Below, one piece after another: positions 3,958 through 51,296 of a stretch of 64,000 bases of DNA (positions are counted from its first letter, which is position 1; every line of letters starts with the position of its first letter). The DNA lies in contig OZ246888.1 of NCBI GenBank assembly GCA_965231775.1, positions 2,074,947-2,138,946 of the forward strand, in the 5' to 3' direction. Both the position numbers and the translations under genes were made by a program. Below the pieces are notes generated by a model. That model did not search any database and was not told where the DNA came from. It was given only the letters and a program-made list of their open reading frames with translations. The DNA is from Candidatus Binatia bacterium. Its GTDB lineage: Bacteria > Desulfobacterota > Binatia > Bin18.

Positions 3958-4812
3958 GTGACGGAAGTTAGGTGTGAGAAAGGCATTGTTATGACTTCTA
4001 TGCGAAACCTTCGTTGTTTTGTCTTGCTATTGAGCCTTTATCCCGCCGTTGCGTTTCTTATGCTTCTATTAGTTCCACCGCCTCAGGCAAACGCCTTTTG
4101 GGGCTCTCTCTTTAAAAGATCACCCAGTATAATTGAAAAACTGTCCAAAAGCTCAAAGGCATTACCTGATGATGAAATAATCAAGCTCTCCAAACTCTCC
4201 GATGAAGCTAATGGCACAGGTAAACTTGGAAAGGAGCTTGGGAAATTAAATTTACCCAATGATGTGCTTGAAGATACATTTATGCGTATCGCTATTCATC
4301 AAGGAAAAGTTACCAGAAAAGAAGCAGGAGGAATGTTTACCAGATTAGGAAATACGCCTGGATTTCGCTCTACTCTAAGAAAAATAATTGGAAATAATGC
4401 TGCGGTTACAAACGGGCACTTGAATGAGTTAAGAATTGCCGACTCGGCGTCCATGAACAGATTCAAAGTGCTAGAGATAGGGGAAAAGTTTAATGACGGA
4501 CGAAAGAAAGCGCCAACCGATATAGATGTAGTTCTCGAAAGAGGGGGCAAACGCTTCGCTATAGAAGCCAAGGACTATGCACCAACAAAACAAATCCCAC
4601 TGGTTCAATACAGGGCAGATTTGGACACCTTGGTTGAGTACAAAAAAGCACACTCGCAGCAGGTTATTCCCATATTTACCATGACAAATAAACCCGACGG
4701 GCGGCATCTAAAAATCTTAGAGAGTGAAGCTAACAAAAGAGGTGTTGAACTGATTTTTGGAAGGCCCCAAGTATTGGTAGAACAAATGAAGATTCTAGCA
4801 GAAATCCCGTGA
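3958..4812 (+). CDS. Secreted hypothetical protein with a possible PD-(D/E)xK-like motif, in a lower-GC cassette.
   Basis: N-terminal signal peptide (LLLSLYPAVAFLMLLLVPPPQANA-FW). The segment PTDIDVVLERGGKRFAIEAKDY resembles a D...ExK nuclease core. Local GC is clearly below the window average. The true start may be the internal Met at 3991. Confidence 0.6.
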   Translation: MTEVRCEKGIVMTSMRNLRCFVLLLSLYPAVAFLMLLLVPPPQANAFWGSLFKRSPSIIEKLSKSSKALPDDEIIKLSKLSDEANGTGKLGKELGKLNLPNDVLEDTFMRIAIHQGKVTRKEAGGMFTRLGNTPGFRSTLRKIIGNNAAVTNGHLNELRIADSASMNRFKVLEIGEKFNDGRKKAPTDIDVVLERGGKRFAIEAKDYAPTKQIPLVQYRADLDTLVEYKKAHSQQVIPIFTMTNKPDGRHLKILESEANKRGVELIFGRPQVLVEQMKILAEIP

Positions 4813-6272
4813 AACCTTACCTGTTATTACTGCTGTTAATTTGCCTGTATCCAGATTTGACTTATGCAGCCGGGGCTACTTTTGAGTCTTTTTACAAAGA
4901 ACCTTGGCCTACCACTTGGATTCTTGCCGGCGCAGCTCTAACTGCGGCTATAGCTACAGCTCTAATAATTTCTACAGGAGGTGCAGCAGCGGCAGCAACT
5001 CCTGCTGTGAAGGCTATTGGCACATGGATTGGCGGTAAAATGGGGCTGTCAGGTGGTGCGGCGCTTAAGGCGGGTCTTGCTTTGCTTGGTGGGGGTGCAA
5101 AAGCCAGTGGCGGTCTTGGCATGGCAGGTGGGACAACACTACTCTTTGCTTCACTAAATTTCGGAACTGATATGGGAATTGGTTATACGCTTGAAAGGGC
5201 GATGAGCGAGTACAGCTACAACAATCTTGCAGAACAAAGTAAGGGGCTACCGACCCTCCCGCTGCCGGTGAATGGCTCTGGACCTGATACTTATGAAGCT
5301 GCCATAGAAATATTAGATGATGTCAATAAAGAGTTGCCTCTGTCTGCTAACAGCAACCAACAGCTAATAGGGCAGGCTATAAGCAGAATAGAAAAAGCAA
5401 ACAAGGAGTCTCGGTCCTGGAATGAGGATGAAAAAATAAAGAACCGGTCCTTATTGTCGTTACTCTATTTTATTTCAAACGATTATGACAAGGCAAAAGA
5501 TCATGCTGACATAGCAATGAGGTACGCGAGAACTTCAGAGATCAAAAAACCCCTTCCGGCATTTATCTACGCAACCAGTTCCTTATATGAGAGAGAATTT
5601 GATTTTTCCCATATCACTAATGACTATTTCAGCTACTCAGTATTAGCAGAACCCGATAACCCGCTCATTCCACTCCTGTTTTCAATATATTTAGACAGGA
5701 TGTTGCTACGCTTTAATGACGACTTTTTGAATGAGACGGCGCTATATCAAATATTTACAATCATGGAATCACCCGCGCTTAAAGAATTGCGGGTGCAGAA
5801 CTACACAATCTTACTTTCAAGATATTTTGTGCGTCTGAAACTAGAGCAACAAAAGATAATGGCTCTGGCGAGCACCTCAAGCAGTACGATCAAAAATAGC
5901 CCGAAAACTTTGCAAGTCGTCAATGATTCACTTGATAGCTATGAGGCACTCCTAAGTGACGCAGGGGATGTCACGATAAGTATGTTAACTCTGGATTTAA
6001 ACGATAATGAGAGCATACAAAGGGCTGAAATTCGCAATTTATTGCGGGACTATAGGAGGGATGCAAAAAGACTTGCTTCCCTCGTCGATGATTTTAGAAC
6101 ACGAGTGGTGAAGACTAGATCATCAGCGACGGAGACTGGAACATCAGCGACGGAGACTGGAACATCAGCGACGGAGACTAGATCATCAACGAGGGAGGGG
6201 GTTGCCGTGGGTGTCGGGCTGGCTATCTTGGCGCTCCTTGGGGTGTTTGCCTGGAGAATCATAAGGCCGTGA
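4809..6272 (+). CDS. Hypothetical membrane/secreted protein with a Gly/Ala-rich segment, a C-terminal TM anchor and a SATETGT x3 repeat.
   Basis: Start overlaps the upstream stop (ATGA). Contains a signal-like N-terminus, a Gly/Ala-rich stretch, the repeat TRSSATETGTSATETGTSATETRSS, and a C-terminal hydrophobic helix (VAVGVGLAILALLGVFAW). Low GC. Confidence 0.6.
   Translation: MKPYLLLLLLICLYPDLTYAAGATFESFYKEPWPTTWILAGAALTAAIATALIISTGGAAAAATPAVKAIGTWIGGKMGLSGGAALKAGLALLGGGAKASGGLGMAGGTTLLFASLNFGTDMGIGYTLERAMSEYSYNNLAEQSKGLPTLPLPVNGSGPDTYEAAIEILDDVNKELPLSANSNQQLIGQAISRIEKANKESRSWNEDEKIKNRSLLSLLYFISNDYDKAKDHADIAMRYARTSEIKKPLPAFIYATSSLYEREFDFSHITNDYFSYSVLAEPDNPLIPLLFSIYLDRMLLRFNDDFLNETALYQIFTIMESPALKELRVQNYTILLSRYFVRLKLEQQKIMALASTSSSTIKNSPKTLQVVNDSLDSYEALLSDAGDVTISMLTLDLNDNESIQRAEIRNLLRDYRRDAKRLASLVDDFRTRVVKTRSSATETGTSATETGTSATETRSSTREGVAVGVGLAILALLGVFAWRIIRP
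6119..6186 (+). repeat. Tandem 21-nt repeat (about 3 copies, catcagcgacggagactggaa) inside the CDS 4809..6272.
   Basis: Copies at 6121-6141, 6142-6162 and a degenerate copy at 6163-6183. They encode SATETGT x3. Confidence 0.8.
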
Positions 6273-7038: not shown

Positions 7039-7644
7039 GTGCGTATGGGACAGATTGAAGTCCTGAGTCCGGTTGGAGAAGCGCAAGTCGGTGATCTGCC
7101 GCTTGCCCGACGAGAGGGTAGCCTGCGCGGGAAAACAATCGGCTTTCTGAATAATCGCAAGGCCAACGCCGGCCTGCTGCTCGAACAGGTGGAAGCGCTG
7201 CTGCACGAACGGTGTGGAGATTTTAGGGTTATCCAGGGGGAGAAGAATGCTTCACTCGGTGTACCCCAAGAGGTGAGGGCACGCCTGTCAAGCTGTGACG
7301 TGATTGTCGAAGCCATAGGCGATTGAGGCTCGTGCACGTCGTGGGGTCTCCACGACACCATTGAATTTGAAAAGCAGGGCATTCCGACCGCCATCATTTG
7401 CAGCGACGAGTTTGCACCGCTCGGCCGGGCCGAGTCCCGCACCCTGGGCATGGGCGGTGTGCCCATTGCCGTGATTCCCCATCCCCTGGCCGGCAATACG
7501 CCGCAGGTGGTGCAGGCCAAGGCCGCGGCCGTAGTGGATGAAATTCTGGCCATTTTAACCCAGCCAGCGGAGCAGTTGGCCGACGCGTATCGCGGGCGGT
7601 TTCTCAAGCCCATGGAGAAAAAGATCGAGCGAGTGTCGGCGTAA
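7039..7644 (+). CDS. UGSC-motif selenoprotein with an in-frame TGA (Sec) at 7324-7326.
   Basis: Track ORFs 7039..7326 and 7450..7644 share a frame and are separated only by a TGA. Read-through gives ...CDVIVEAIGD-U-GSCTSWGLHDTIEFEKQGIPTAIICSDEF... A 7-bp hairpin follows 11 nt downstream. RBS GGGAGGTG precedes the ATG at 7039. A fused paralog with the same U-GSCT context is at 44217. Confidence 0.75.
7338..7356 (+). promoter_or_regulatory. Candidate bacterial SECIS hairpin (gtcgtgg-GGTCT-ccacgac).
   Basis: Perfect 7-bp stem with a GGUCU loop, starting 11 nt after the UGA at 7324-7326. Confidence 0.55.
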
Positions 7645-7697
7645 TCAGCCCCCTCACCCCAGCCCTCTCCCCTGAGGGGAGAGGGAGCAAAAGTGTC

Positions 7698-8780
7698 ATG
7701 GATTTCCAATCAGACAAAATCTCCCTGGACGATTCTCTTGAATCCGTCAACGACTGGTTTTACGACCAGGGCTGGACGGATGGGCTGCCCATTATTCCAC
7801 CCACACCCGAGCGGGTAGAAAAGATGCTGGCCTGGACGGACCGTAGCCCCCAAGACGTACTGGGACCGATACCGCCCAAATACGGCATTGCCACCCTGGA
7901 AAAATTAGCCGTGAACGCGGTCATGGCGGGCTGTGTGCCCGAATACTTCCCGGTCATTATTGCCGCAGTCGAGGCACTGCTCGAAGGGCCGTTCAATCTG
8001 TACGGGGTGCAGAGCACAACCCATCCCTGCGCGCCGCTGCTGATTCTGAACGGCCCGATTGCGGCGGAGATCAGTGTCAACTCGCGCTACAACGCCTTTG
8101 GCCAGGGCTGGCGGCCAAACGCCACAATCGGCCGCGCGATTCGCCTAGTTCTGCTGAATGTCGGTGGGGGAACGCCGGGCATGCTGGACCGCTCAACCCA
8201 GGGCCAGCCCGCAAAGTACAGCTATTGCATAGCCGAGAACGAGGAAGAAAATCCCTGGGGTCCGCTACACGTCGAACGCGGCTTTGCGGCCGAGACCAGC
8301 ACGGTCACGGTCTGCGGAGCGGAAGGGCCGCATAATATCAACGACCATATCAGCAGTGCCGCGCCTGGGATTCTGACGACCATAGCCAGCACCATGGCCG
8401 GTATGGGCTCGAATAATGCCTACGCGTTTGGTGAACCGATTCTCGCCCTCGGACCCGAGCATGCCGATATCCTGGCCCGAGACGGCATCTCAAAGGACGA
8501 CATTCGGGCCTATGTCTTCGAGCACGCCCGTGTGCCACGCGAACAGTGGGAGGCGGGCGGCATGATCGGTATGGGGTTTACCCCGGATGACGCCTTTCCC
8601 GACGCTGCCGCCATCCCGCTGATTCGCAAACCGGAACGGCTCATGATTCTCGTCGTCGGCGGTCCGGGTCGCCACTCGTGCTGGATGCCTACGTTCGGGG
8701 CCATGACCCGTTCCGTGACCCGTCAGCTTGCCCTCAAGGACGGCCGGCCGGCGACGTCCATTCAAGAGTTTCGTCGCTAG
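7698..8780 (+). CDS. Conserved protein partnered with UGSC selenoproteins (family not named). A paralog of this domain is fused to the UGSC domain at 44217..45920.
   Basis: 360 aa. The segment WFYDQGWTDGLPIIPPTPERV aligns with ERFSVEGWSDGLPVIPPTQDRV in the fused ORF. The gene lies immediately downstream of the UGSC gene. Confidence 0.7.
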   Translation: MDFQSDKISLDDSLESVNDWFYDQGWTDGLPIIPPTPERVEKMLAWTDRSPQDVLGPIPPKYGIATLEKLAVNAVMAGCVPEYFPVIIAAVEALLEGPFNLYGVQSTTHPCAPLLILNGPIAAEISVNSRYNAFGQGWRPNATIGRAIRLVLLNVGGGTPGMLDRSTQGQPAKYSYCIAENEEENPWGPLHVERGFAAETSTVTVCGAEGPHNINDHISSAAPGILTTIASTMAGMGSNNAYAFGEPILALGPEHADILARDGISKDDIRAYVFEHARVPREQWEAGGMIGMGFTPDDAFPDAAAIPLIRKPERLMILVVGGPGRHSCWMPTFGAMTRSVTRQLALKDGRPATSIQEFRR

Positions 8781-31654: not shown

Positions 31655-32006
31655 GGGGGCGATCTGGTTTCGACGTGGGCTAGAAAGCCAGGGCTGCATG
31701 CCGGGGTTCTGTCCCGCCCGTAAAACGGACAGGCTGCAATTTAACTGCAGACGATTTTGATTACGCTCTTGCTGCCTAGAGCAGCTTGCGTCTTACTGAC
31801 CCGCGCCCGTAGGGTTGGCTAAGGCGACACAAATCGGGATAGGGCTCGCATCGTGCCGAAGGGTGCGCGCCCGAAACTTTACTTTGGCTGGTCTGAGGGC
31901 ATCCTGCTCGTAGGAGGCCCGAGGATGAGATCAAACTACGAGCTACGCATTGTAGATGCCTTGAGTGGACTACTCTCGGACGCGGGTTCGATTCCCGCCG
32001 CCTCCA
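31655..32006 (+). ncRNA. ssrA: Transfer-messenger RNA (tmRNA). Tag reading frame about 31747-31779, giving tag peptide ADDFDYALAA.
   Basis: 5' GGGGGCGATCTGGTTTCGACGTGGG matches the tmRNA 5' acceptor/TLD, with an internal GGCTGCATGCCGGGG. The tag ORF gca gac gat ttt gat tac gct ctt gct gcc tag ends in the typical YALAA. The 3' end is TCGGACGCGGGTTCGATTCCCGCCGCCTCCA (T-arm plus acceptor); CCA is not encoded. Lies immediately downstream of smpB. A possible -10 (ATAATT) is at 31642-31647. Confidence 0.85.
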
Positions 32007-32041
32007 TTTTCTTTCTCCCTAAGAACCCGCAGGGGGTTCGT

Positions 32042-33741: not shown

Positions 33742-36700
33742 TCACCCCGCACCAGCCTGCTCATACGCAAGCCCGAACACCGTATCGGTCAGCCAGCGCT
33801 TGAAGCTCTGGTTGTCCATGAACTGCTTGAACAGCTCGGTGTCGTCCTTCATCACCGAGGTCATCACCCGGAGCAGCGCCTTGTCGTGTTCGATACGGGC
33901 GTTCTCCCGGTCCGAGTTCTGCTGAGCGTTCTTGAAGGCCGTGTCCTCGGCCACCCTGGCAGGAATGGTCTGGGTAATGAGCTGCCGCACACGGTCGGCA
34001 TCGTCCCAGTCGATATCGCCGAAGAGATCGTTGAAGGCCCGCAGGATATTCGACAGCCGGTCCAACTCCGGCTCGGGCAGGTGGCCGCCGCCTATGGTCG
34101 GCACAGGTTCGATCTCGGCATCCTCGTCGGGTAGCATGATTTTCTGTATGGCCTGCTTCTCGGCCCGATAGCTGTCCATGTCGATGGCGTCGAGAATGCC
34201 CTTGGACAGGTCCTCCTCTTGGGGGGAGGGTAGCTTGGAGACCAGGAAATTCAGGAATATCGAGCGTTTCTCCCAGTCCGCGTTGGTATAGGGCAGGACC
34301 GACGACAGGAAGCCGTAGGTCCGCACAAAGCCCTTGGCCTTGCCCTTGAAGTCCACCTGGCCGTCTTCGTCCAAATCGCCCAGATAGACTGCCACGCAGG
34401 CATCGAGGATGGGGTCGAGCTGGTCACGTTCGGCTCCGCTAAGATAACGTGACACAAAGGCGTCGATCTGCTCGGAAGAATAGACCTGAGCGCCGTCAAG
34501 ATCAGCCTGCAAATCGTGCAGCTTGTTGGGGTCGGTCTCATCGGCCAGAATCGTCGCCCGATAGAAGCCGGCAAAGGACTCACAGATAATTGCGGTCTTG
34601 TTCAGAAAATCCAGCACGAAGACATCGTGCTTCTTGGGATGCGCCCGGTTGAGGCGCGACAGGGTCTGCACCGCCTTAACGCCCGCGAGCGTCTTGTCCA
34701 CATACATCGTGTGCAGCAGGGGCTCGTCATAGCCGGTCTGGAACTTGTCCGCACAGATCAGGAAACGGTAGGGGTCCTCTTGTATCTTCTCGGCGATCTT
34801 GCCGGACGGAAAACCGTTGAGCGACGCCTCGCTGACCTTGACTCCGCCGAACTCGGGCTCACCGGAGAACGCCACTATGGCCTGGTAACGGCTCTTGCGT
34901 TCTTTCAGGTAGTCGCGGATGGCGTGAAAGTACTGGATAGCGCGCTCAATACCGTTGGTGACGACCATGGCCCGTGCCTGGCCGCCGATCTTGTTCTGGG
35001 CCAGCACCTGCTCGTGAAAATGATCGACCATGATCTCGGCCTTGAGACGAATGGCATGGTCATGGCCCTCGACAAAGCGCCGCAGCTTCTTCTGGGCTTT
35101 CTTCGTATCGAACTGCGGGTCGTCTTCTACCGTCTTGGCCAGCTTGTAATAGCTGCTCACCGGCGTGTAGTGGGCCAGCACGTCCAGGATAAAGCCCTCC
35201 TGGATGGCCTGCTTCATGGTGTAGGTGTGAAAGGCGTGATGCTTGACCGTGCCGTCGGCCTGCGGGTCCGGGTTGCCGAAGATTTCCAGGGTCTTGTTCT
35301 TGGGCGTGGCCGTAAAGGCGAAGTAGCTGGCGTTGGGGAGCAGCTTGCGCGACTCCATCAAACGGTTGATCTGGTCCTCATAGGTCTCCTCTTCGCCCTC
35401 CTCACCGGCCCGGGACAGCGCCTGCGCCATGGCCGCGCTGGTGCGGCCGCCCTGGCTGGAGTGGGCCTCGTCGATGATAATGGCGAAGCGCCGCCCGCGC
35501 TGCTCGTCGCCGATCTCGTCGAGGATGAAGGGAAACTTCTGCACGGTCGAGATGATGATCTTCTTGCCGGACTCGATGAAGCGGCGCAGGTCGCCCGAAC
35601 GCTCGGCATGCCCGAGTGTCGCGCCGACCTGGGCGTACTGTTTGATGGTATCGCGAATCTGCTTGTCGAGAATCCGCCGGTCGGTGACCACGATGATCGA
35701 GTCGAAGACCGGGCTATCGTCTTTTGCCAGCCCGATCAGTTGATGCGCCAGCCAGGCAATGGAGTTGCTCTTGCCGCTGCCCGCCGAGTGCTGGATTAAA
35801 TAGCGCCGGCCCACGCCACGCGTCCCGGCGTCGGCTAGCAGCCGGCGCACCACGTCGAGCTGGTGGTAGCGCGGCCAGACCTGGGTCTTTTTCTTCCTGC
35901 CCGTCTTCTCGTCCCTGGACTCTACCACTTGGGCATAATTCTCCAGAATGTTGGTCAGGCTCTGGCGGGTCAGCACCTCACGCCACAGGTAGTCGGTCTT
36001 GAGCCCGTTCGGGTTGGGTGGGTTGCCCGCGCCGTCGTTCCAGCCCCGGTTGAAGGGTAGAAACCACGAGGACTTGCCCTGGGGGTGGGTGCAGAAGCGC
36101 GCTGCGCTCTCGTCCACGGCGAAGTGGGCCACGCAGCGCCCGAGTGCAAACAGCTTCTCGCGCGGGTTGCGGTCTTTTTTGTACTGCCAGACCGCGTCGT
36201 CCACGGTCTGCTTGGTCAGGCTGTTCTTGAGTTCAAAGGTAAAGACCGGCAGGCCGTTGATGAACAGCCCGATATCCAGCGCCCGCTGGGTTTCGTCGCG
36301 GCTGTAGCGTAGCTGGCGGGTAACGGTGAAGCGGTTCTGCTCGAAGCGTTCCTTCGCCTTCTGGTTGCCGGCTGAAGGCGTGCCGTAGAACAGGGCCAGG
36401 TGGTGCGACCCGTGGTCGAGGCCGTGGCGCAGCACGTCGATGCTGCCGCGCTTGGCAATCTCGCCCTGGAGCCGGGCCAGGAATTTACGCCGTGTGGGGC
36501 CGTCCTCGGACAGCCCCAGCGATGCCGCGGCCTTGGGTTGGGTGGCACGCAGGAAGGCCGAGAGCTGGACCAGATCGACGCAGTATTCCCGGTCGTAGTC
36601 GTGGAAGTTGCCGCCGCTCCAGCCCACACCGCCGTAGCCGGCGGGTGGTTCGGCCACTGTGCCCGTGGCGGGCGGCTCGCAGGGATGGCCGGCCAGCGCG

Positions 36701-36747
36701 GTGCAGATGAGGCGTTCGAGACCGCGTTCGGAGGTGTCGGTGGGCAT
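33742..36747 (-). CDS. hsdR: Type I restriction enzyme R subunit.
   Basis: 1001 aa with SF2 helicase motifs (QHSAGSGKSNSIAW, IIIDEAHSSQG) and N-terminal nuclease-domain similarity. Confidence 0.9.
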   Translation of the reverse strand: MPTDTSERGLERLICTALAGHPCEPPATGTVAEPPAGYGGVGWSGGNFHDYDREYCVDLVQLSAFLRATQPKAAASLGLSEDGPTRRKFLARLQGEIAKRGSIDVLRHGLDHGSHHLALFYGTPSAGNQKAKERFEQNRFTVTRQLRYSRDETQRALDIGLFINGLPVFTFELKNSLTKQTVDDAVWQYKKDRNPREKLFALGRCVAHFAVDESAARFCTHPQGKSSWFLPFNRGWNDGAGNPPNPNGLKTDYLWREVLTRQSLTNILENYAQVVESRDEKTGRKKKTQVWPRYHQLDVVRRLLADAGTRGVGRRYLIQHSAGSGKSNSIAWLAHQLIGLAKDDSPVFDSIIVVTDRRILDKQIRDTIKQYAQVGATLGHAERSGDLRRFIESGKKIIISTVQKFPFILDEIGDEQRGRRFAIIIDEAHSSQGGRTSAAMAQALSRAGEEGEEETYEDQINRLMESRKLLPNASYFAFTATPKNKTLEIFGNPDPQADGTVKHHAFHTYTMKQAIQEGFILDVLAHYTPVSSYYKLAKTVEDDPQFDTKKAQKKLRRFVEGHDHAIRLKAEIMVDHFHEQVLAQNKIGGQARAMVVTNGIERAIQYFHAIRDYLKERKSRYQAIVAFSGEPEFGGVKVSEASLNGFPSGKIAEKIQEDPYRFLICADKFQTGYDEPLLHTMYVDKTLAGVKAVQTLSRLNRAHPKKHDVFVLDFLNKTAIICESFAGFYRATILADETDPNKLHDLQADLDGAQVYSSEQIDAFVSRYLSGAERDQLDPILDACVAVYLGDLDEDGQVDFKGKAKGFVRTYGFLSSVLPYTNADWEKRSIFLNFLVSKLPSPQEEDLSKGILDAIDMDSYRAEKQAIQKIMLPDEDAEIEPVPTIGGGHLPEPELDRLSNILRAFNDLFGDIDWDDADRVRQLITQTIPARVAEDTAFKNAQQNSDRENARIEHDKALLRVMTSVMKDDTELFKQFMDNQSFKRWLTDTVFGLAYEQAGAG

Positions 36748-37326: not shown

Positions 37327-38469
37327 CTACAATCCGAGTGTCTGCGCAAATTGGTCGAAACTCCGGCCATGCAGACCCGTGAGGCGATACGCGTCACGGT
37401 ACAGTAGCCGGCCCTCCCGCGCTGCACGAATGACCGCGCTACCGAAGCGACGGCCGACACGTCCCCGTTGCGCGTTGTAGAAATTCCCCCCACTCGATTG
37501 CTGCGCAGATCTTCGCCGTTCGTCAGCCTTGTATCGATCCAGGAATCCGTAGAAATCGTCTCCCGCCATCAACTCTCGATCCAACACTCGCCGGGCCGCT
37601 ACGAGGGGGCTGACCTTGAAGCGCCTCGCCAGCGCTTGAAACGGTTCGGCCGACTCGGCCACGCTCGGCCAGCAGCCATCAAGCTCGTCTCCCGGAATCA
37701 GTACTTCCGCCGCAACCTCGTTACAAAATCTTTCAACATCATCGTCGTAGGGCTGGAGGTTCACCAAGTTGAACACACCGCCTGTCCCCAACCACAGGTG
37801 GGCCAGTTCGTGCGCCAGGGTAAACATCTGAGCAGACGTGAAGTCCGCTCCGTTGATGAAGATTAAAGGCGCGTAATCGTCGCAGAGCACAAATCCCCGA
37901 AATTCCTCCGGGTCCAGTTTCTGTCGCGTATTGTTCTCCACGACGCCGTTGACGACGACCAAAACACCTATCTCTTCCACCGCCTGCCGAAGCCCAACGA
38001 GCGCGGCGGACCATGTAGGGTGCGTGCTCGCCCAGCCATCATCGACACCGAGTGTCCTTCGGATATTGTTGGCCGCGTCCACGCGACTCGAAGCCAACGT
38101 GACAGTCCCGACGAAGGCAAGAGGTTCTTCGCCTACCTCGATAAGATATTCGCGCATCCACTCTTGCCGCCGCTGCATTTGCCGCACAGTGGTTATCAGT
38201 GCCGCGCTCGGCCGCGCCGGCTGCTGGCCTTTGAGGGTGCGAAAATCAGCAACCGGTAATTTCTCATCCGGCGGCTCCTCTAAAAGCAAGGCTCCGAAGG
38301 GTGTGAGCGTCGCCTTTGCAAACCGCTCCAATTGCTTAAACGTCGGCTGCGCCTCACCGCCTTCCCACTGTGGCAGCTTCGGGAAGCGCTTCGCCAAGTC
38401 AGACATGTCCTTTCCCGAGCGCTCGCGCGCCCAGCGAACCACTGCGGGGTTCACCGCGACCTTGTTCAT
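37327..38469 (-). CDS. HTH (XRE-like) + ImmA/IrrE family metallopeptidase (DUF955).
   Basis: HELAHLWLG is the HExxH zinc peptidase motif, and the N-terminus is HTH-like. The start is chosen at MNKVAVNP; the track begins at 38511. Confidence 0.75.
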   Translation of the reverse strand: MNKVAVNPAVVRWARERSGKDMSDLAKRFPKLPQWEGGEAQPTFKQLERFAKATLTPFGALLLEEPPDEKLPVADFRTLKGQQPARPSAALITTVRQMQRRQEWMREYLIEVGEEPLAFVGTVTLASSRVDAANNIRRTLGVDDGWASTHPTWSAALVGLRQAVEEIGVLVVVNGVVENNTRQKLDPEEFRGFVLCDDYAPLIFINGADFTSAQMFTLAHELAHLWLGTGGVFNLVNLQPYDDDVERFCNEVAAEVLIPGDELDGCWPSVAESAEPFQALARRFKVSPLVAARRVLDRELMAGDDFYGFLDRYKADERRRSAQQSSGGNFYNAQRGRVGRRFGSAVIRAAREGRLLYRDAYRLTGLHGRSFDQFAQTLGL

Positions 38470-38517
38470 ATTGATAACACAGCACCCTGACCGGCTACGG
38501 TCAATCTTCAAAGTCGT

Positions 38518-42221: not shown

Positions 42222-42374
42222 CTTTTTGCGTATCCCTGAGGGGCCTGTAGCGGATATCACACGGAACGCAGGACACAACACTCCGGGCGTGTACCGAAGG
42301 GCAGAGGCGAGGCAGGGGCCTACGGAACAGAGGAGAGCCTTACGGATCGCGGGGCAGGCGTCAATCCCTGCTCT

Positions 42375-42540
42375 TATGTGGGTGTCGGCGAACCCACTCA
42401 TGCCGATGCCATCCTCGACCGGTTGGTGCACAACGCCTATCGCATCGAGCTGAGGGGCGAATCGATGCGAAAAATCAACGCCGGGAGAGGTAGACGACTC
42501 AAGGCCAAGGTTTTACTGTACGAAGGCTATGAGGGAGAAT
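42375..42540 (+). mobile_element. IS21-family istB C-terminal remnant (pseudogene fragment).
   Basis: Frame translation ...[43 protein letters not shown]...* matches the conserved IstB C-terminus (AILDRL..H....I.L.GeSyR). No N-terminal ATPase part or istA is present. Confidence 0.55.
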
Positions 42541-42544
42541 CATA

Positions 42545-44083
42545 ATGAGTTCCGATAAAACCGGCGGCTCCGTAGGCGCGCCGACAGACAGCGAACTGCG
42601 CGCGGCCGCGCAGGCTTTATTTCTCGATCTGGATCGGGGCGACGTGGATTTCTTCGCAACCGCGATGGGCAAGTTCGTCGACGACTACAATGCCATCGAC
42701 GCCATGGACGCGCCGACCCTGCCGACGAAATATCCGCGCGGTGAGGGTTATCGCCCGACCGGCGATGAGAACCGTTACGGTGCCTGGCAGTGGAAGTGTT
42801 CGATCAAGGGCGCGGCGTCCGGCAAGCTCGTCGGCAAACGCGTCGCCATCAAGGACAACATCAGCGTTGCGGGCATGCCTATGCTGAACGGCTCGGCGCT
42901 GTATGAAGGCTTTATCGCCGACGAAGATGCGACCGTCGTGACCCGCGTGCTCGATGCCGGCGGCGAAGTGGTCGGCAAGGCCGTGTGCGAAAACTTCTGC
43001 TATTCCGGCGGCAGCCATACGTCGGCTTCGGGTCCGGTGAGGAACCCGCGCGACCCCGACTTCATGACCGGCGGCTCGTCGAGCGGCTGTGCCGCATTGA
43101 TTCTGACGGGTGAATGCGACATGGCGATCGGCAGCGACCAGGGCGGCTCCGTACGCATGCCGAGCTCGTGGTCTGGCTGCGTCGGGATCAAGCCGACTCA
43201 CGGCCTCGTGCCCTATACCGGCGCCGGACCCATCGAGCACACTATCGATCACCTCGGGCCGATGGCTGCCTCGAGCGTCGATTGCGCCCTGTTACTCGAG
43301 GTAATCGCGGGCTACGACGATGGCCTCGACCCGCGCCAGGTGGCGGCATTGCCGGCAAAACCCTATAGCGAACTCGTCGGCCGGGGGATTGAGGGGCTGC
43401 GGATCGGTATCGTTCGCGAAGGCTTCGGCGCGCCGGGCTCGGAAGCGGACGTGGATGAATCCGTGCTGGCCGCGGCCCGGCGGCTGCAGGAAGCCGGTGC
43501 CGTGGTCGCAGAAATCTCCATCCCCATGCACACCGAGGCATTGAAGATCATGTTCGCAGGTTCTGTCGACGGGACGCTGTCAACGTGGAGCGATCAGGGT
43601 CCGGCGGGCGGAAACGCAGATGGCCACCACCCACTCGGAGCGATCCGCTTCTTTCAGGAGGCGCGCAAAACCCGGGCGGCGGAACTGCCGGACATGGCCA
43701 AGACCGTGCTGTTGTTCGCGCAGGTCATGCGCGCACGGTACGGCAACTATTATTCCGCCAAGGCCCAAAACCTCGTCCGCACGCTCCGTGCCGCCTACGA
43801 TCTCGCGTTTGATAAATGCGACCTGCTGGTGATGCCGACGACCGTGATGAAAGCACACCGGATCCCACCACCGGACGCATCCCGTGAAGTCGTCATGGGG
43901 CTCACGCTCGACATGATCGGCAACACCGCGCCCTTCGATGCGACGAGCCATCCGTCGATGAGCGTGCCGACTGGTCTGTCGAACGGCCTGCCCGTCGGCA
44001 TGATGATCACAGGACGCTACGGTGAGGACGATGTCGTGCTGCGCGCCGGGCATGCGTTCGAGACGTTGCGTGGACCGTTTTGA
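42545..44083 (+). CDS. Amidase-signature family amidase.
   Basis: GGSSSGCAALI (GGSS[SG]G) and KDNISVAGMP. RBS GAGGGAG precedes the start. 512 aa. Confidence 0.85.
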   Translation: MSSDKTGGSVGAPTDSELRAAAQALFLDLDRGDVDFFATAMGKFVDDYNAIDAMDAPTLPTKYPRGEGYRPTGDENRYGAWQWKCSIKGAASGKLVGKRVAIKDNISVAGMPMLNGSALYEGFIADEDATVVTRVLDAGGEVVGKAVCENFCYSGGSHTSASGPVRNPRDPDFMTGGSSSGCAALILTGECDMAIGSDQGGSVRMPSSWSGCVGIKPTHGLVPYTGAGPIEHTIDHLGPMAASSVDCALLLEVIAGYDDGLDPRQVAALPAKPYSELVGRGIEGLRIGIVREGFGAPGSEADVDESVLAAARRLQEAGAVVAEISIPMHTEALKIMFAGSVDGTLSTWSDQGPAGGNADGHHPLGAIRFFQEARKTRAAELPDMAKTVLLFAQVMRARYGNYYSAKAQNLVRTLRAAYDLAFDKCDLLVMPTTVMKAHRIPPPDASREVVMGLTLDMIGNTAPFDATSHPSMSVPTGLSNGLPVGMMITGRYGEDDVVLRAGHAFETLRGPF

Positions 44084-44216: not shown

Positions 44217-45920
44217 ATGAGTTCACATAGCGAAATTCACTACGAGGTCGTCTGGCCGAAATCGCCGCTAGCGGTACAGACACGGCATCCCGCCGAGCGG
44301 CTCGATACGCTCGAGGGCAAACGAGTCGGGTTCCTGTGGGATTTCCTGTTTCGCGGTCACGAGCTTTTTCCGGTCATAGAAAAAGAGCTGCAGAACCGTT
44401 TCACCGGGATCGAAATCGTCGGGTACGACGAATTCGGCAACACGCACGGGGGCGATGAAGCCGCGGTGATTGCGGCCCTTCCTAACCGGTTGCGTGACCG
44501 CCGTATCGACGCCGTCGTCTCCGGGGTGGGATGTTGAGGGAGTTGTACGCCCGCCGTGATGCGGGCGTCGGTTGTCGCGGAAGCCGCCGGGGTGCCGTCG
44601 GTGTCGCTGGTCTGTGAAGGTTTCGAACGCCAGGCGTCGGCCACCGGTCGCGGCGCGGGATTCGACGGACTTCCCCTCGGCGTGCTGCGCGGGCACGTGG
44701 ACGCTCAGAGCCACGACGAGATGATCGGCTACCTGCGTGACTCGACACTTGACCAGATCATAGCCGGTCTCACCAGCGCACCGGTCGTCAGTGAGGGCGC
44801 TGCCGCCGAGCCCGCGCCACTGGATGTCGTTGCCACGGGAACGATTGACGATATCAACGAACGTTTCAGCGTTGAGGGGTGGAGCGACGGCCTGCCGGTC
44901 ATTCCGCCGACCCAGGACCGGGTCGCGGCGTTTCTCGCCGCGCTGAACGATAACCCCTGGAGAGTAATCGGCACCGCCCGGCCCTCGGGCCGCGATATCT
45001 CGGTCTGGTCGGTTGCCGTCAATGCCGTCATGACCGGTTGTCAGCCTCGGCACCTGCCCGTGCTCTTGGCGCTCGCCGAAATCATTGCCGATCCCGGTTA
45101 CGGCGTCGAGCACTCGGGCAACACCACCGGGGCCGACGCCCTCGTCATCGTGAATGGGCCGTCGATGGCCGAACTCGGCTTCAACGCCCGGCAGGGGGTA
45201 CTTCGGGAGGGCGCCCACGCGAATACCAGCGTCGCCCGATGGCTCCGGCTGTACCTGCGCAATGTCTGTGGATTCACCGCCGATGAACACGACAAGGCCA
45301 CGTTCGGTAACAGCACCCGGGTGGTATTGGCCGAAGATGAGCAGACGCTGACCGACATCGGCTGGCAACCACTGAGTGCGGAGTTCGGGTTCGGGCGGGG
45401 CGACGACGTGGTCACCATGGCCCGCATGAACAGTGGCCTCATCCTTGGCAGCGTCTTCGGATCGACAGGCGATGCGATTGTGCCGTATCTGGCCGACGGC
45501 CTCGTTCGAGTCAGTGGCTGGGACCTCGCGCACATCTACGGGTTCGGACAGGGCCATTATCGACCGCTGCTGATCCTTTCCCCGATACTGGCGCGCACAT
45601 TCGCCCGATCCGGCTGGAGTAAGGATGACGTCAAGCAGGCGCTGTTCATGAAGGCACGGCTGCCGGCGGCCAGGTTCGAGCAGCTCATCGGCGAGTGGAG
45701 CAACATCGATGCGGGGCGCCGACCCCTGTTCGAACTGGCGACCGAAGGTCTGGTCCCGCCGGTCTTCGGCGAGTCCAACGATCCGCAACGCCTCGTGCCG
45801 ATCGTGACCGAGGCCTCGAAGTTTCTGATCGCCGTTGCAGGCGACCCGAACCGGAACAATGCCTACGTAATGAGTAACGATGGCCCGCACGGTGACTGGA
45901 CGGCCAAGGCCGTACCATGA
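44217..45920 (+). CDS. Fused UGSC-motif selenoprotein domain plus partner domain, with an in-frame TGA (Sec) at 44535-44537.
   Basis: Track ORFs 44217..44537 and 44556..45920 share a frame and are separated by a TGA. Read-through gives ...AVVSGVGC-U-GSCTPAVMRASVVAEAAG...ERFSVEGWSDGLPVIPPTQDRV... An 8-bp hairpin follows 9 nt downstream. The stop overlaps the transporter start. Confidence 0.7.
44547..44568 (+). promoter_or_regulatory. Candidate SECIS hairpin (acgcccgc-CGTGAT-gcgggcgt).
   Basis: Perfect 8-bp stem with a GU-containing loop, 9 nt after the UGA. Confidence 0.5.
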
Positions 45921-47686
45921 ACCCCTACGCCTTCGGCATCATCACGAGCATCGTGATCTACCTGTTGATCGGAAATTACGCCGGCCGGCGGGTAAAAGAT
46001 GTCGATGATTATTTCGTTGCGGGGCGTGACAGCTCGACCTTGCTGATAGCCGGCACCCTGGTCGCGAGCTACCTGAGCACCGCCGCGTTCCTGGGTGAAA
46101 CCGGGTTTACGTATCAAGGGCACGGCGCGATCCTCATGATCCTGGTCGGGGTCAATATCGTCGGCTACGTACTGGGCGCGGCGTTCTTCGGCCGCTATGT
46201 CAGACGCAGCCAGGCGATAACAGTTGCCGAGTTCTTCGGCAAGCGTTTTAACAGTCGGCGCGTTCAGGCCGCCGCGGGCGTGACGGTTATCGGGGGTGTC
46301 ACCGCCTATTTGCTGGCGGTGACCCAGGGGGCATCACTTGCGATATCGGAAGTGATGCATATTCCCTATGACGTGACTTTGCTGATCGTCTGGATCGGTT
46401 ACACCTCGTTCACCATATATTCCGGCTCGAAAGGCGTGGTGTTGACGGATACCGTCATGTACCTGCTGTTCACCTTCGTCGGTGTCCTCTCTCTCTACTA
46501 CATCCTTGGTGAGACCGGGGGATGGTTCGCCACCATCGAGTCCTTGGCGGTATACGAAGCCAAGCCGGACATCATCTCTTGGCACGGTGTCGTCGGATCC
46601 GATTCGCGCTGGCAAACCTCGTTCGATTCAGTTGGCTGGGGTCTCGTGCTCGGGATCGCGTGGGCATTCACGATTGCGGTGAGCCCGTGGCAATCGAGCC
46701 GCTACCTCATGGCGAAAAACGAGCACACCGTGATTCGATCGGCCTGCTTCGCGAGCGCGTCGGTCGTGGTGCTGTATTGGGCGTTGGTGGTGTCCGCCGC
46801 CGCCGTCAATCTCCTCAACCCGGATATCGAGCCCAACGAAAGGGCAATGATCTGGGCGGCTTTCAGCGCCATGCCGACCTATGCGGGCGTGTTGTTCATG
46901 ACCGGCGTGGTGGCTGCCGCCCTGTCCTCGGCGTCGACATTTCTCTCCTTGATTGGATTCAGCGCGACGAACGATCTGGTCGAGATTCGTGAGGGCGATG
47001 AACGTCGCAAGCTCCGGTTGAGCCGCTACACCATGCTGGCGACCGGGATCGTCATCTTGATCGTGGCGTATTTCCAACCGCCCGCGATCATGATGATCAG
47101 CTATTTTGCGGCGACGCTGTTTTCATCGTCGTGGGGACCGGTGGCCTTCATGAGCGTGTGGAGTAAACGCATCACGGCAGACGGGGCTTTTTGGGGGATC
47201 GTCGTCGGCTTCGTTGGGAACCTGATACCGAAGATCCTCTCGGTATTCGAGGTGATATACTTGCCGGTTTATCTCGATCCATTCGTGATTGGCATCGTAT
47301 TGAGCCTCATCACGATAATTCTTGTATCGCGAAATAGCCGGGTCACCGAGGAGGAATATCTTTATCGTATGCAGGTCCATCAAACGCCGCCCACCGAATA
47401 TGATCCCTCACTGACTGCCAAAACCTTGTGGTTCGCGAAAGGTTTAATGGTCTGCGGCGCGGCCCTGACGATACTCATGATCGTGTTTTACGTGTTGCCG
47501 TACGAGCATGCGGTCGGGCACAAGGCCGGACTACCTGTGTCTGGCCCGGTGGTTCTTGTCATGAGCGGCGAGCTGATTCTCTCGATAGGGTACGGCGGTA
47601 TCCTCTTCCTGTGCGGTGCGTTCGCCTACTGGTGGACTAAGCGCTCCTACGGCGAACGTCACGAGGGGCCGGATCAACATTCGTAG
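45917..47686 (+). CDS. Sodium:solute symporter family transporter.
   Basis: 589 aa, multi-TM, with the SSF-typical N-terminus (DYFVAGR...). ATGA overlap with the upstream gene. Confidence 0.85.
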   Translation: MNPYAFGIITSIVIYLLIGNYAGRRVKDVDDYFVAGRDSSTLLIAGTLVASYLSTAAFLGETGFTYQGHGAILMILVGVNIVGYVLGAAFFGRYVRRSQAITVAEFFGKRFNSRRVQAAAGVTVIGGVTAYLLAVTQGASLAISEVMHIPYDVTLLIVWIGYTSFTIYSGSKGVVLTDTVMYLLFTFVGVLSLYYILGETGGWFATIESLAVYEAKPDIISWHGVVGSDSRWQTSFDSVGWGLVLGIAWAFTIAVSPWQSSRYLMAKNEHTVIRSACFASASVVVLYWALVVSAAAVNLLNPDIEPNERAMIWAAFSAMPTYAGVLFMTGVVAAALSSASTFLSLIGFSATNDLVEIREGDERRKLRLSRYTMLATGIVILIVAYFQPPAIMMISYFAATLFSSSWGPVAFMSVWSKRITADGAFWGIVVGFVGNLIPKILSVFEVIYLPVYLDPFVIGIVLSLITIILVSRNSRVTEEEYLYRMQVHQTPPTEYDPSLTAKTLWFAKGLMVCGAALTILMIVFYVLPYEHAVGHKAGLPVSGPVVLVMSGELILSIGYGGILFLCGAFAYWWTKRSYGERHEGPDQHS

Positions 47687-48786: not shown

Positions 48787-50028
48787 CTACTCCAACACCT
48801 CGGCAATCACTAACTCGGTGATCTTCTCCTCGTTATAGCCCAGAATATTCTCCAACACGTTCTGATTCTCACGTCCCAGCGTCGGGGCAGAGCGGTTAAT
48901 CTCCGCCGGGGTGCGGGAGAATTTGAAACGGCTGCCTTCGACGGTAGTCTTGCCGAAGTCGGGATGCTCCAGGTCTACAAAGTGCTCACGGTGCTGAAGC
49001 TGCTTGTCCTCGTACAATTCGTTTATGGTTTCGACTGCGCTGGCCGGAACGTTTTTGGCCTGGAGCTTTTCTTCGGCTTCATATGGGTTGAACTGGTTGC
49101 TCCAGGCGTTGATGGCTTTATCGATCTCGTCCTGATTGGCCAGCCGGCCTTTGACGGTGGCAAGACGCTCGTCACTGCCGAGGTCCGGGCGGTTCATGGT
49201 CTCGCACAGCGAGCGCCACTGGTCGTCGGTTTCCACGCCGATCGCTACCCAGCGATCCTCTCCTGCGGACGGATACACCCCGTGCGGGGCGAAGTTCATA
49301 TCCCGGTTGCCCATACGGGTCTGGGTCCGTCCGTTGACGGTTTGATCTAAAAGAAACGGCGCCAGAAAATGGAGGGCGGCTTCGGCCTGCGCCAGGTCAA
49401 TATGCTGGCCTTTGCCAGTCTGGTGCTTGTGTTCCAATGCCGCTAGCACGGCCGCGGCGTTATACCAGGGTGCAATATAGTCGGTGTAGGCACCGAATGG
49501 TCCAGCCGGCTCGCGGTCGGGCCAGCCGGTGGGATCGAAAAATCCTGAGACGGCGGCCGCCAGATTCCCAAACCCGGCGAAGTGAGAATGCGGCCCGGTC
49601 TGGCCCATCAGACAGGTGCTGAGCATGATGATGTCAGGCTTGATTTTTGTGAGCGACTCGTAGTCAAAGCCCCACTCCCGCATGGCTTTGGGAGAAAAGG
49701 ACTCGGTCACCACGTCGGCCCAGCGCACCAGGTCCAAAATGATGTCGCGCGACTCCGGTTTGGACAGATTCAGGGTCATCGGCAGTTTGCCCGTGTTCAT
49801 ATTATTGTACAAACCGGAGTTGTTCGGGCCGGGTTGCTTGTTTTGAAAAGGCCCGACCATGCGCACCGCGTCAAAACGGGTGGTGGATTCAACCCGCACG
49901 ACGGTCGCCCCGTAGTCGGCCAAAATACGCGTCGAGCCAGGGCCGGCCATGGCCCACATGAAATCGAGTACTTTGACCCCAGCCAGGGCTTGATTACTTT
50001 TACTGCCAGTCTGTTGTCCCTCTGCCAT
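48787..50028 (-). CDS. CoA transferase family III (CaiB/BaiF-like).
   Basis: LAGVKVLDFMWAMAGPGSTRILADYGATVVRVE N-terminus. 413 aa. Confidence 0.85.
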   Translation of the reverse strand: MAEGQQTGSKSNQALAGVKVLDFMWAMAGPGSTRILADYGATVVRVESTTRFDAVRMVGPFQNKQPGPNNSGLYNNMNTGKLPMTLNLSKPESRDIILDLVRWADVVTESFSPKAMREWGFDYESLTKIKPDIIMLSTCLMGQTGPHSHFAGFGNLAAAVSGFFDPTGWPDREPAGPFGAYTDYIAPWYNAAAVLAALEHKHQTGKGQHIDLAQAEAALHFLAPFLLDQTVNGRTQTRMGNRDMNFAPHGVYPSAGEDRWVAIGVETDDQWRSLCETMNRPDLGSDERLATVKGRLANQDEIDKAINAWSNQFNPYEAEEKLQAKNVPASAVETINELYEDKQLQHREHFVDLEHPDFGKTTVEGSRFKFSRTPAEINRSAPTLGRENQNVLENILGYNEEKITELVIAEVLE

Positions 50029-50054
50029 GGTTACTCCTCCTGAGTGAGTCTCGG

Positions 50055-51296
50055 TCAGATTATCCCTTTGTTTTGCAACTCTGCTAAGGCTTGGGCGTCA
50101 AGGCCGAGTTCGCCATAGACCTCGACATTGTGCTCACCAATCCTCGGCGGACGCCGCTTATAGTCAATCGGCTGCTCGCTGAACTTGGCAAACGGACCGG
50201 GATAAGCAAAGGCTTTGCCCATCTCCTCATGGTCAACCGCAGTCCAGTATTGACGCGACTCCAACTGCTCGCTTTCGACGACCTCGTCAATCGTGGTGAC
50301 CGGGGCGACAAGCAGGCCACGGTCCAGGGCGTTCCGGAACAGCTCTTCTTTGGTTTTGGTCTTGGTGAAATCTTCAACGATCAGTTTGAGGCGTTCATAG
50401 TCTTCAAGCGTTTTCGGGTCGCCACCAAACAGGCCGCCGCCCATATTAACCCAGTCCATCTGTTGGACTTCTTTGTCACAAAACCCCTCTTCATAGATCC
50501 AGTCCATCAGACGCTTGGTGAAATGGGCAAACGCCGAGCCAAACAGATAGGCAATCGAAACATGCCCGTCTTTCGCCGGCCAGAGCAGGCGGATTTCCAA
50601 CGGCCCCATTTTTGCTCCACCGGCCATCCGGCGGGTTTCCGCATCGTTGAGCGGAGCCGAGAGTATGGTTGACTGGGTTGCCTGGGCCGCCGCCTGCTGG
50701 GCGGAAATATCAATATGCTGACCGTGGTTTGAGCGGTGGGATTCGTACAGGGCAATCAGCGCGGCCGGCGCCGCCGCGGCGCTGGCGTGCAGATAGCCCT
50801 GGGGCAGGCTCAGGCGGACCGGCGGGCGGTCTTCGTCGCCGGTAATGACGAGCGGCCCGCTGCTGGCCAGAATAATCAGATCGCTGTCCGCATAGCTGGC
50901 TTTCGGGCCGTCTTGTCCAAAGGGGGTAATCGAGACATAAATCAGCCCCGGATTGTCCGCCGCTAACTCGTCATAGCTCAAGCCGTATTGGGCCAGGCTG
51001 CCGGGATTGTCCGATTCGATCAGAAATTTTGCGTCTCGTGCCAGACGCCGAAGAAGGCCCTGTCCTTCGGATTGCGTGATATCGAGCGTGACCCCCCGTT
51101 TATTGCGGTTATAGGCCCACCAGTAGAGCGAGTTCTCCGCATCTTCTTGATCCTGATAGAAGGGCCCCAGCTTGCGAGCCGAGGAGCCGCCGGGGGGCTC
51201 GATTTTAATCACGTCAGCGCCAAGATCGGCCAGGATTTGGCCACACAGCAGTCCGCGTTCTGTTGTCAGATCAAGAACTCGATAAGGGTTGAGCAT
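50055..51296 (-). CDS. CoA transferase family III (CaiB/BaiF-like), tandem paralog.
   Basis: YRVLDLTTERGLLCGQILADLGADVIKIE N-terminus. 413 aa. Confidence 0.85.
   Translation of the reverse strand: MLNPYRVLDLTTERGLLCGQILADLGADVIKIEPPGGSSARKLGPFYQDQEDAENSLYWWAYNRNKRGVTLDITQSEGQGLLRRLARDAKFLIESDNPGSLAQYGLSYDELAADNPGLIYVSITPFGQDGPKASYADSDLIILASSGPLVITGDEDRPPVRLSLPQGYLHASAAAAPAALIALYESHRSNHGQHIDISAQQAAAQATQSTILSAPLNDAETRRMAGGAKMGPLEIRLLWPAKDGHVSIAYLFGSAFAHFTKRLMDWIYEEGFCDKEVQQMDWVNMGGGLFGGDPKTLEDYERLKLIVEDFTKTKTKEELFRNALDRGLLVAPVTTIDEVVESEQLESRQYWTAVDHEEMGKAFAYPGPFAKFSEQPIDYKRRPPRIGEHNVEVYGELGLDAQALAELQNKGII

Follow-up and report, generated by a model that had tools for sequence, protein, structure and literature searches.

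A 64,000-nucleotide stretch of DNA from Candidatus Binatia bacterium (assembly GCA_965231775.1, contig OZ246888.1, positions 2,074,947 to 2,138,946 of the forward strand; hereafter the window) raises the question of what an orphan selenoprotein does in the company of a second orphan protein. At one site in the window (locus 1), the gene for a UGSC selenoprotein is followed by a separate gene for a 360-aa protein, here called the partner; at another (locus 2), homologous domains share one reading frame. A sequence-only reading of the window had proposed from this split-versus-fused arrangement that the two proteins act together, probably as a redox enzyme using the selenocysteine (Sec)-x-x-Cys centre. 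The comparison of loci described here strongly supports joint action of UGSC and its partner, in a case about as strong as comparative genomics allows, and we consider it very likely that the two constitute one enzyme or complex. For the fuller reading, in which they form a two-part (or fused) Sec/Cys-dependent catabolic enzyme that works as a reductase, we estimate a probability of about 0.55.

The novelty implied by the sequence-only reading is lower than it seemed, since a UGSC fusion has been reported: Zhang and Gladyshev (2008, PLoS Genet) described a ‘UGSC/Unknown_1’ fusion with a conserved Cys, held that fusions point to functional links, and proposed a thioredoxin (Trx)-like fold for UGSC (PMC2398784). 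Unknown_1 is very probably the partner described here. The 2008 account (PMC2398784) came without the neighbourhood survey, the reverse-order fusions, the relation to GrdB/PrdB and the reductase link that are given below. A 2026 review still lists UGSC proteins without a function (PMC13188914), and in the literature searched none has been assigned to UGSC or to the partner. Within that same literature, several elements appear to be new: near-obligate pairing observed from both directions, fusion in both orders, a Rossmann-like fold, the kinship of the Sec module with GrdB/PrdB, the orphan fold of the partner, the link to thioredoxin reductase, and the transporter and catabolic context.

Two loci and a recurrent gene pair

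At locus 1, the UGSC gene spans 7045..7644 on the forward strand and encodes 199 aa including Sec. The most likely start is the ATG at 7045, with a GGAGG-like site 9 nt upstream and the GTG at 7039 as an alternative, and the stop codon is TAA (7642-7644). The UGA at 7324..7326, which is predicted to be read as Sec, lies in the motif GD-U-GSC-TSW (EAIGD-U-GSCTSW), and family homology continues in frame on both sides of it. With U written as C, the protein matches PF24696 at E=1.4e-48 (165.7 bits, cutoff 25) and scores 140.6 bits against NF041046, above the curated cutoff of 125, which places it within that family. A 53-nt spacer (7645-7697) leads to the partner gene (7698..8780, forward strand), whose 360-aa product was assigned to an orphan family from its translation, homologue clusters and an AlphaFold2 (AF2) model. 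The two separate, adjacent genes noted earlier at 7039..8780 are thus borne out by translation together with the PF24696 and NF041046 matches.

The fused gene of locus 2 (44217..45920, forward strand) encodes 567 aa including Sec in a single frame, as supported by translation, PF24696 and BLASTP; by domain match, the UGSC domain covers ~44217-44798 and the partner domain ~44823-45917. Its sole in-frame TGA (44535..44537) lies in the motif GC-U-GSC-TPA (GVGC-U-GSCTPA), so that the gene would read TGA twice, as Sec at 44535 and as stop at its end. Residues 11-185 match PF24696 above the cutoff (E=2e-27, 96.8 bits), but the domain reaches only 45.8 bits against NF041046, under the cutoff of 125, which indicates a divergent subfamily. 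Both UGSC genes of the window are accordingly members of the family named ‘UGSC-containing protein’ (PF24696/NF041046), at these respective distances. Between the two loci, the partner domains align over ~348 residues at 30% identity (BLASTP, E=4e-43) and the UGSC domains align at E=2e-12, and the shared motif GW(T/S)DGLP(I/V)IPPT reads GWTDGLPIIPPT in locus 1 and GWSDGLPVIPPT in locus 2. The homology, the single-frame fusion and the motif claimed by the sequence-only reading all held, and an absence of significant similarity, which it had named as grounds for abandoning the idea, was not what the alignments gave.

Both TGA codons are assigned as selenocysteine codons on comparative grounds. 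Downstream of each, the RNA is predicted to fold into a hairpin resembling a selenocysteine insertion sequence (SECIS): at locus 1 (7338..7356, forward strand) with a 7-bp stem that begins 14 nt past the UGA and an apical loop of GGUCU, and at locus 2 (44547..44568, forward strand) with an 8-bp stem and the loop CGUGAU, a type also found in members of its subfamily (L027, L038, L052). Across ~70 homologous loci, a hairpin occurs 3′ of the equivalent TGA, with a stem of 6-9 bp beginning 14-17 nt past the UGA and an apical loop containing GU. Compensatory stem changes are many, for example ACGUCGUGG/CCACGAC, ACAUCGUGG/CCACGAU and GUCCUGG/CCAGGAC. Three loci have a Cys codon in place of the TGA; L064 and L070 are without the hairpin, and L004 retains a remnant stem ~12 nt further downstream. 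Natural Cys forms at the Sec column comprise these three loci, the fusions P0128 (DCGSC) and P0141 (DCGNC), and Natrinema (DCGSC). All 28 diverse UGSC members share the Sec position (aligned as Cys), G95 and the resolving Cys without exception. No tRNA-Sec gene was found in the window, a 64-kb piece too small for this to be informative.

To evaluate the pairing, loci were sampled from either side. The partner-side scan, with one genome per species, returned at least 595 relatives, from which 80 loci were kept; these span Binatia, Acidimicrobiales, Dehalococcoidia, Rokubacteria/Methylomirabilota, Burkholderiales, Alphaproteobacteria, Poribacteria, Bacillaceae, Actinomycetota and Entotheonella. 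The window itself is ~94% identical to a Candidatus Binatia chromosome. Loci were scored with our own hidden Markov models (HMMs) for both domains on translations read through TGA codons. Of 76 testable loci, 71 have a UGSC gene or domain on the strand of the partner; the other four of the 80 are cut by a contig end. The intervening gap is mostly below 150 nt, and reaches ~0.4-1 kb in four loci owing to an intervening DUF6282 gene. The five true exceptions are L037, L050 and three Poribacteria (L061/L062/L065) in which the partner is shortened.

The UGSC-side scan searched metagenome contigs for the codon pattern D-U-G-S-C-T-S-W-S-[VI]-H-D, blind to the partner, and gave 120 loci, every one of which matches the UGSC HMM. 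After setting aside as not judgeable the 26 loci that end less than 600 nt from the UGSC gene, the partner is present in 93 of 94 (90 adjacent on the same strand, three adjacent and convergent on the opposite strand). One UGSC copy clearly lacks a partner, and it resides in a locus (L092) that holds a second, complete pair. Both gene orders, UGSC before partner (U>P) and the reverse (P>U), were found. Among the top 150 partner-family representatives at 50% identity, 57 are fused to UGSC (53 U-P and four P-U), 89 stand alone and four are tandem partner-partner proteins. The pair also occurs on haloarchaeal megaplasmids, as a Cys form with overlapping start and stop codons, and in Bacillota including Sporomusa. 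Adjacency is near-obligate from either side, and chance was rejected as an explanation; split and fused forms, together with adjacency across distant lineages, make this a conserved-operon pair of the Rosetta-stone kind. The survey of gene neighbourhoods that the sequence-only reading had called for thus upholds its inference that the two proteins act together.

The fused form is poorly visible in databases. For the window's fused protein, the 120 best relatives in databases are without exception fragments, 452-491 aa long and beginning past the TGA. More widely, U-P fusion entries begin after the TGA (~410-490 aa) and P-U fusions end at ‘...GD’ just before Sec (P0271-P0390, P0121 and others), such that nearly all public Sec-containing fusion entries are affected. 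Truncation at the Sec codon is a systematic annotation artefact, which hides the fusion and lowers counts of the UGSC family. A protein search with UGSC likewise gave only 14 matches, because gene callers split the gene at TGA.

Several genomes carry multiple paralogues; one Chloroflexi contig encodes three fused UGSC-partner genes in tandem (L029, 5404-10843). An arrangement of UGSC, partner and a second, divergent partner (U>P>P′) recurs in L024, L056, L057, L063, L067 and L079, and single proteins with two partner domains exist (P0151, P0203, P0243). A DUF6282 gene lies between the UGSC and partner genes in several bacteria. Some metagenome-assembled genome (MAG) names in the sample are implausible (L002, L025, L048, L072; e.g. 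‘Bordetella parapertussis’ for freshwater MAGs) and look like taxonomic mislabels; an ‘uncultured Enterobacteriaceae’ MAG carries a partner 88% identical to that of the window.

The Sec module and the partner fold

The natural Cys-form fusion P0128 (561 residues) provided an opportunity to model both domains in one chain. It is predicted to fold as one body (predicted local distance difference test, pLDDT, 94.5; predicted template modelling score, pTM, 0.94); structure prediction of a complex or fusion was among the checks that the sequence-only reading had suggested. In this model, the UGSC motif lies within a parallel α/β domain, with a β-strand on one side and the N-terminal end of a helix on the other, and the predicted fold of the UGSC domain is Rossmann-like. 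A thioredoxin fold was rejected for this domain. A search of the PDB by sequence found nothing for UGSC; a complex II flavoprotein match at E=0.03 was dismissed as a local ‘CGxC..svH’ coincidence.

By sequence, the UGSC domain distantly resembles the part of the selenoprotein B reductases that bears Sec. The GrdB model TIGR01917 is matched by 20 of the 28 diverse UGSC domains (best E=9.5e-6), and the same set yields 12 matches to TIGR01918, 12 to GrdF, eight to GrdH and four to PrdB. For the UGSC protein of the window, the only member whose matched region is known, the matches cover the Sec region at model positions ~342-420 of 431-435. No UGSC domain reaches the full-length cutoffs of the selenoprotein B models (TIGR01917, TIGR01918, TIGR04483), and membership of GrdB/PrdB proper was rejected since the scores fall far below them. 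On this comparison, UGSC is distantly akin to the Sec module of these reductases and lies outside their family.

PrdB is itself listed as a UxxC selenoprotein (PMC2398784), and in PrdA/PrdB the Sec protein depends for its activity on another protein, the product of a neighbouring gene, that binds the substrate (PMC11229817). The UGSC pair and the Stickland reductases (GrdB, GrdF, GrdH and PrdB, with pyruvoyl GrdE and PrdA) share a Sec within a U-x-x-C motif, the pairing of the Sec protein with a second protein from an adjacent gene and, by inference for UGSC, regeneration by a thiol/flavoprotein system. They differ in several respects. At ~200 aa, UGSC is without the remainder of GrdB; no similarity was detected between the partner and GrdE/PrdA, nor any evidence that the partner undergoes pyruvoyl processing. 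Moreover, the hosts of UGSC are largely non-clostridial (Binatia, Burkholderiales, Dehalococcoidia, Rokubacteria, Actinomycetota, haloarchaea), and its context is organic-acid and CoA-ester catabolism rather than Stickland fermentation. Homology of the partner to GrdE/PrdA was unsupported, as none of 80 partners matches the GrdE/PrdA models.

The partner belongs to a large family: clustering at 90% identity gives at least 8000 clusters, and at 50% identity there are 6021 representatives (E<=1e-3). The sequence-only reading took it to be uncharacterised, and so it proved. Neither the single sequence nor 80 members at E<=1 gave a meaningful match to Pfam or NCBIfam, and neither single sequence nor profile gave one to the PDB. 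RefSeq names the partner ‘hypothetical protein’, as does every source that gives a name. Matches to DnaB and Timeless at E>0.1 were attributed to chance. Recurrent motifs of the family are GWxDGLPxxPPT, NAVMAGC, TTHPC, NGP, NATIGRAxRL, DRSTQG, AENE, PHNxNDH and GGPGRHS. The AF2 model (pLDDT 96, pTM 0.94) has no close neighbour among solved structures: in Foldseek, the sole near-full-length alignments are to class I fumarate hydratases, and these are weak (prob <=0.84, TM 0.25-0.31, E ~1e-3). The partner shows no sequence similarity to the class I ([4Fe-4S]) fumarate hydratase/tartrate dehydratase alpha-type domain, and the three cysteines that ligate the cluster of that domain are not kept across the partner family. 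We therefore do not take the alignments as evidence of membership in that enzyme family.

Residue conservation divides the partners further. Universal positions are D28, G29, P31, P35, T36, N73, C79, T107/T108, G119-P120, N141, R146, D164, T167, E180, E182 and W187, with C79 nearly invariant. A second set (H109, C111, C177, H212, N213, D216, H217, H255, H326) marks the main subfamily, to which locus 1 belongs; the whole H109...H326 set is missing from the fused paralogue of locus 2 and from its subfamily. From these alignments the two window copies are placed in different subfamilies, and they would not be redundant; their substrates probably differ. An Fe-S or metal site common to all partners was rejected, since the candidate ligands are not kept family-wide.

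A candidate reductase and competing explanations

Clues to the chemistry come from neighbouring genes. In L010, L032, L056, L057, L058, L063 and L067, the gene immediately 5′ of UGSC specifies a thioredoxin-reductase-like flavoprotein (Pyr_redox_2 with CxxC), and in P0158 a thioredoxin-reductase-like domain with the motif CAVCD is fused to the C-terminus of the partner. Transporter genes, often adjacent and co-directional, include TctC (24 loci), an NMT1-like binding protein (14) and MFS (nine). Catabolic neighbours comprise Amidohydro_2, DUF6282, SDR, crotonase, family III CoA-transferase (beside the pair in 9-13 loci), MaoC, MmgE/PrpD, LLM oxidoreductase and amidase, the last also recurring close to the pair at loci other than those of the window.

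The reading that we favor at about 0.55 can be set out as a catalytic cycle. The unit would be encoded as adjacent, co-transcribed genes (7045-8780) or as one chain (44217-45920). The partner, whose universally conserved polar residues are D28, T36, N73, C79, T107/T108, N141, R146, D164, T167, E180 and E182, would bind a small, probably carboxylate-bearing substrate, and the Rossmann-like UGSC module would present the selenolate of its U-x-x-C loop to that substrate site. By analogy with PrdB/GrdB, Sec may attack the bound substrate; the neighbouring Cys would then resolve the adduct to a selenenylsulfide and free the reduced product. The Se-S bond would be re-reduced by the adjacently encoded thioredoxin-reductase-like flavoprotein or, failing one, by the general thioredoxin system. 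Such a cycle follows the logic described for PrdA/PrdB (PMC11229817), but with an unrelated substrate subunit. We infer the contact of Sec with the partner site, the redox cycle and the substrate class: reduction is suggested because UxxC is nearly invariant, because the Sec region is related to that of GrdB/PrdB, and because thioredoxin-reductase-like genes are adjacent to the pair in ~8 loci and one is fused to the partner, while the catabolic role is suggested by the co-directional transporters and the neighbours of organic-acid/CoA-ester catabolism.

Several observations weigh against this reading. The flavoprotein lies beside the pair in just ~10-15% of loci, and most have no dedicated reductase. 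The similarity to GrdB/PrdB spans ~60 residues and scores 16.4 bits where the cutoff is 602, or 13 where it is 65. No counterpart of the pyruvoyl subunit was detected, in that none of 80 partners matches PF09338 or, recurrently, any Pfam or NCBIfam family (E<=1). Finally, Sec and Cys are both lost in Sporomusa (DMGTSS), P0133 (GWSGVYT), L032 (GMSGGST) and P0253, which keep the partner core; a partner domain is thus able to work, or at any rate to be retained, in the absence of a redox-active UxxC. The redox enzyme that the sequence-only reading derived from the Sec-x-x-Cys centre is thus plausible in view of the motif, its GrdB/PrdB relatives and the reductase genes, but the case is circumstantial, and the Sec/Cys-less members and the many loci without a reductase count against it.

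As the main alternative, the same obligate two-part enzyme might be redox-neutral: an isomerase, lyase or hydrolase that needs no external reductant and in which Sec/Cys serves as a nucleophile or in acid/base catalysis. Its substrates would be unsaturated or substituted di/tricarboxylates or their amides, handled for example by Michael addition-elimination as in maleate isomerase. We consider this unlikely, though two of the points against reduction, the missing reductases and the persistence of Sec/Cys-less members, speak for it. So do the neighbours, which are CoA-transferases and members of hydratase, lyase and isomerase-type families (MmgE/PrpD, crotonase, MaoC, Amidohydro_2, HMG-CoA lyase, adenylosuccinate-lyase family) and not electron carriers, and it could also accommodate both the weak likeness of the partner to class I fumarate hydratase and its second conserved Cys, C79. 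Redox-neutral chemistry is harder to reconcile with the strict U-x-x-C spacing, a classic selenenylsulfide redox motif, with the kinship between UGSC and the Sec-bearing part of the reductive selenoprotein B enzymes, or with the flavoprotein disulfide-reductase genes that recur beside the pair and are found fused to the partner.

Catalysis could also reside in the partner alone. UGSC would then be a general thioredoxin-like oxidoreductase that keeps C79 reduced or delivers S/Se, a role in keeping with its description as having a ‘likely Trx-like fold’ with a UxxC motif (PMC2398784), with the near-invariance of C79, and with the partner-only genes (L037, L050, Poribacteria L061/L062/L065). Yet C79 is kept where UGSC has lost both Sec and Cys, and a generic redox helper would usually be paired and fused much less tightly, which leaves this an improbable account. 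A metalloenzyme, in which H109, C111, C177, H212, D216, H217, H255 and H326 bind a metal or Fe-S cluster and Sec acts as a ligand or proximal redox partner, is again very unlikely: no residue of the set is kept throughout the family (V, A or G often stands in place of C111), and the whole set is missing from the fused paralogue of the window and its subfamily. What recommends it is conservation of these His/Cys residues in locus 1 and most relatives, a weak fold similarity to the [4Fe-4S] hydro-lyases class I fumarate hydratase and CyuA, and a Rieske protein encoded in a Natrinema operon.

These findings have practical consequences. UGSC is essentially never alone, which defines a two-gene or single-gene unit to express, and the proposed sequence of Sec attack followed by selenenylsulfide recycling, as in Prd/Grd, is a testable hypothesis. 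The adjacent thioredoxin-reductase-like proteins are candidate reductants, the transporter and catabolic neighbours suggest candidate substrate classes, and cultivable hosts of the pair exist for genetics, namely Neobacillus bataviensis LMG 21833 (L069), Robertmurraya sp. 2P01SA (L034), Paracoccus versutus, Variovorax sp. SRS16 and Natrinema spp. For annotation, it matters that nearly all fused-form database entries are cut at the Sec codon. A broader proposal, about which we have more doubt than confidence, is that UGSC and its partner represent a large unrecognised class of Sec-dependent catabolic enzymes, a counterpart of the clostridial Stickland reductases among haloarchaea and largely non-clostridial bacteria. 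Such a class would pair a GrdB/PrdB-like Sec module with an orphan-fold substrate subunit, with many substrate-specific paralogues for imported organic acids and amides, and would explain why UGSC ranks among the most abundant orphan selenoproteins of aquatic metagenomes.

Two plasmid-borne relatives illustrate the range of contexts. On a megaplasmid of Natrinema zhouii (L201, 5357-9415), an operon encodes UGSC, the partner, DUF6282, Amidohydro_2 and the Rieske protein; genes for a CoA-transferase, HMG-CoA lyase, enoyl-CoA hydratase, and proteins of the adenylosuccinate-lyase and isocitrate-lyase families are nearby, and archaeal Cys-form pairs are also present on other haloarchaeal plasmids. 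On plasmid pSPTER of Sporomusa termitida (L202, 5374-8543), a fused homologue has D-M-G-T-S-S where D-U-G-S-C-T would stand; the genes after it encode an FAD-dependent oxidoreductase and an MFS transporter, with aconitase X, DUF126 and electron-transfer flavoprotein (ETF) genes close by.

Surroundings of the two loci

Locus 2 is part of an amidase/fusion/symporter operon. The amidase gene (42545..44083, forward strand; PF01425, E=1.8e-86) lies directly 5′ of the fused gene, and a sodium:solute symporter (SSS) gene follows (45917..47686, forward strand; PF00474, E=8.6e-28). The symporter ATG overlaps the TGA stop of the fused gene at 45917-45920 (ATGA), implying that the two are translationally coupled. 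Two family III CoA-transferase genes are located nearby on the reverse strand (48787..51296; PF02515, E=3e-108 and E=1e-75).

At locus 1, the spacer between the UGSC and partner genes contains a perfect 10-bp palindrome, CCCTCTCCCC-TGA-GGGGAGAGGG (7663..7685, no strand assigned), which occurs once within the window and could be an mRNA-stability or processing hairpin or an element resembling repetitive extragenic palindromes (REP-like). A scan for promoters and terminators around locus 1 gave nothing over background. The flanking genes, a divergent DsbA-like gene without CxxC and ychF, are kept only among close relatives. Further upstream, a stretch of low G+C content (3958-6272; 43% at 4001-6000 compared to ~58-60% elsewhere in the window) encodes two proteins, neither with a Pfam match, and may have been horizontally acquired; one of them, 487 aa long, has a signal-like N-terminus, a segment rich in Gly and Ala, and a TSATETG repeat at its C-terminus.

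Between the two loci, a tmRNA gene (31655-32009) stands immediately before an apparent defence island, which extends to 42431. It encodes an AAA_21/AAA_15 ATPase, a 210-aa protein without assigned identity, an M78/IrrE-like protein (37327-38511) and a type I restriction-modification system comprising HsdR (33742-36747), HsdS (38518-39903) and HsdM (40236-42431). The amidase/fused-UGSC/symporter operon begins at the far edge of this island, with a G+C content of 63% compared to ~58%.

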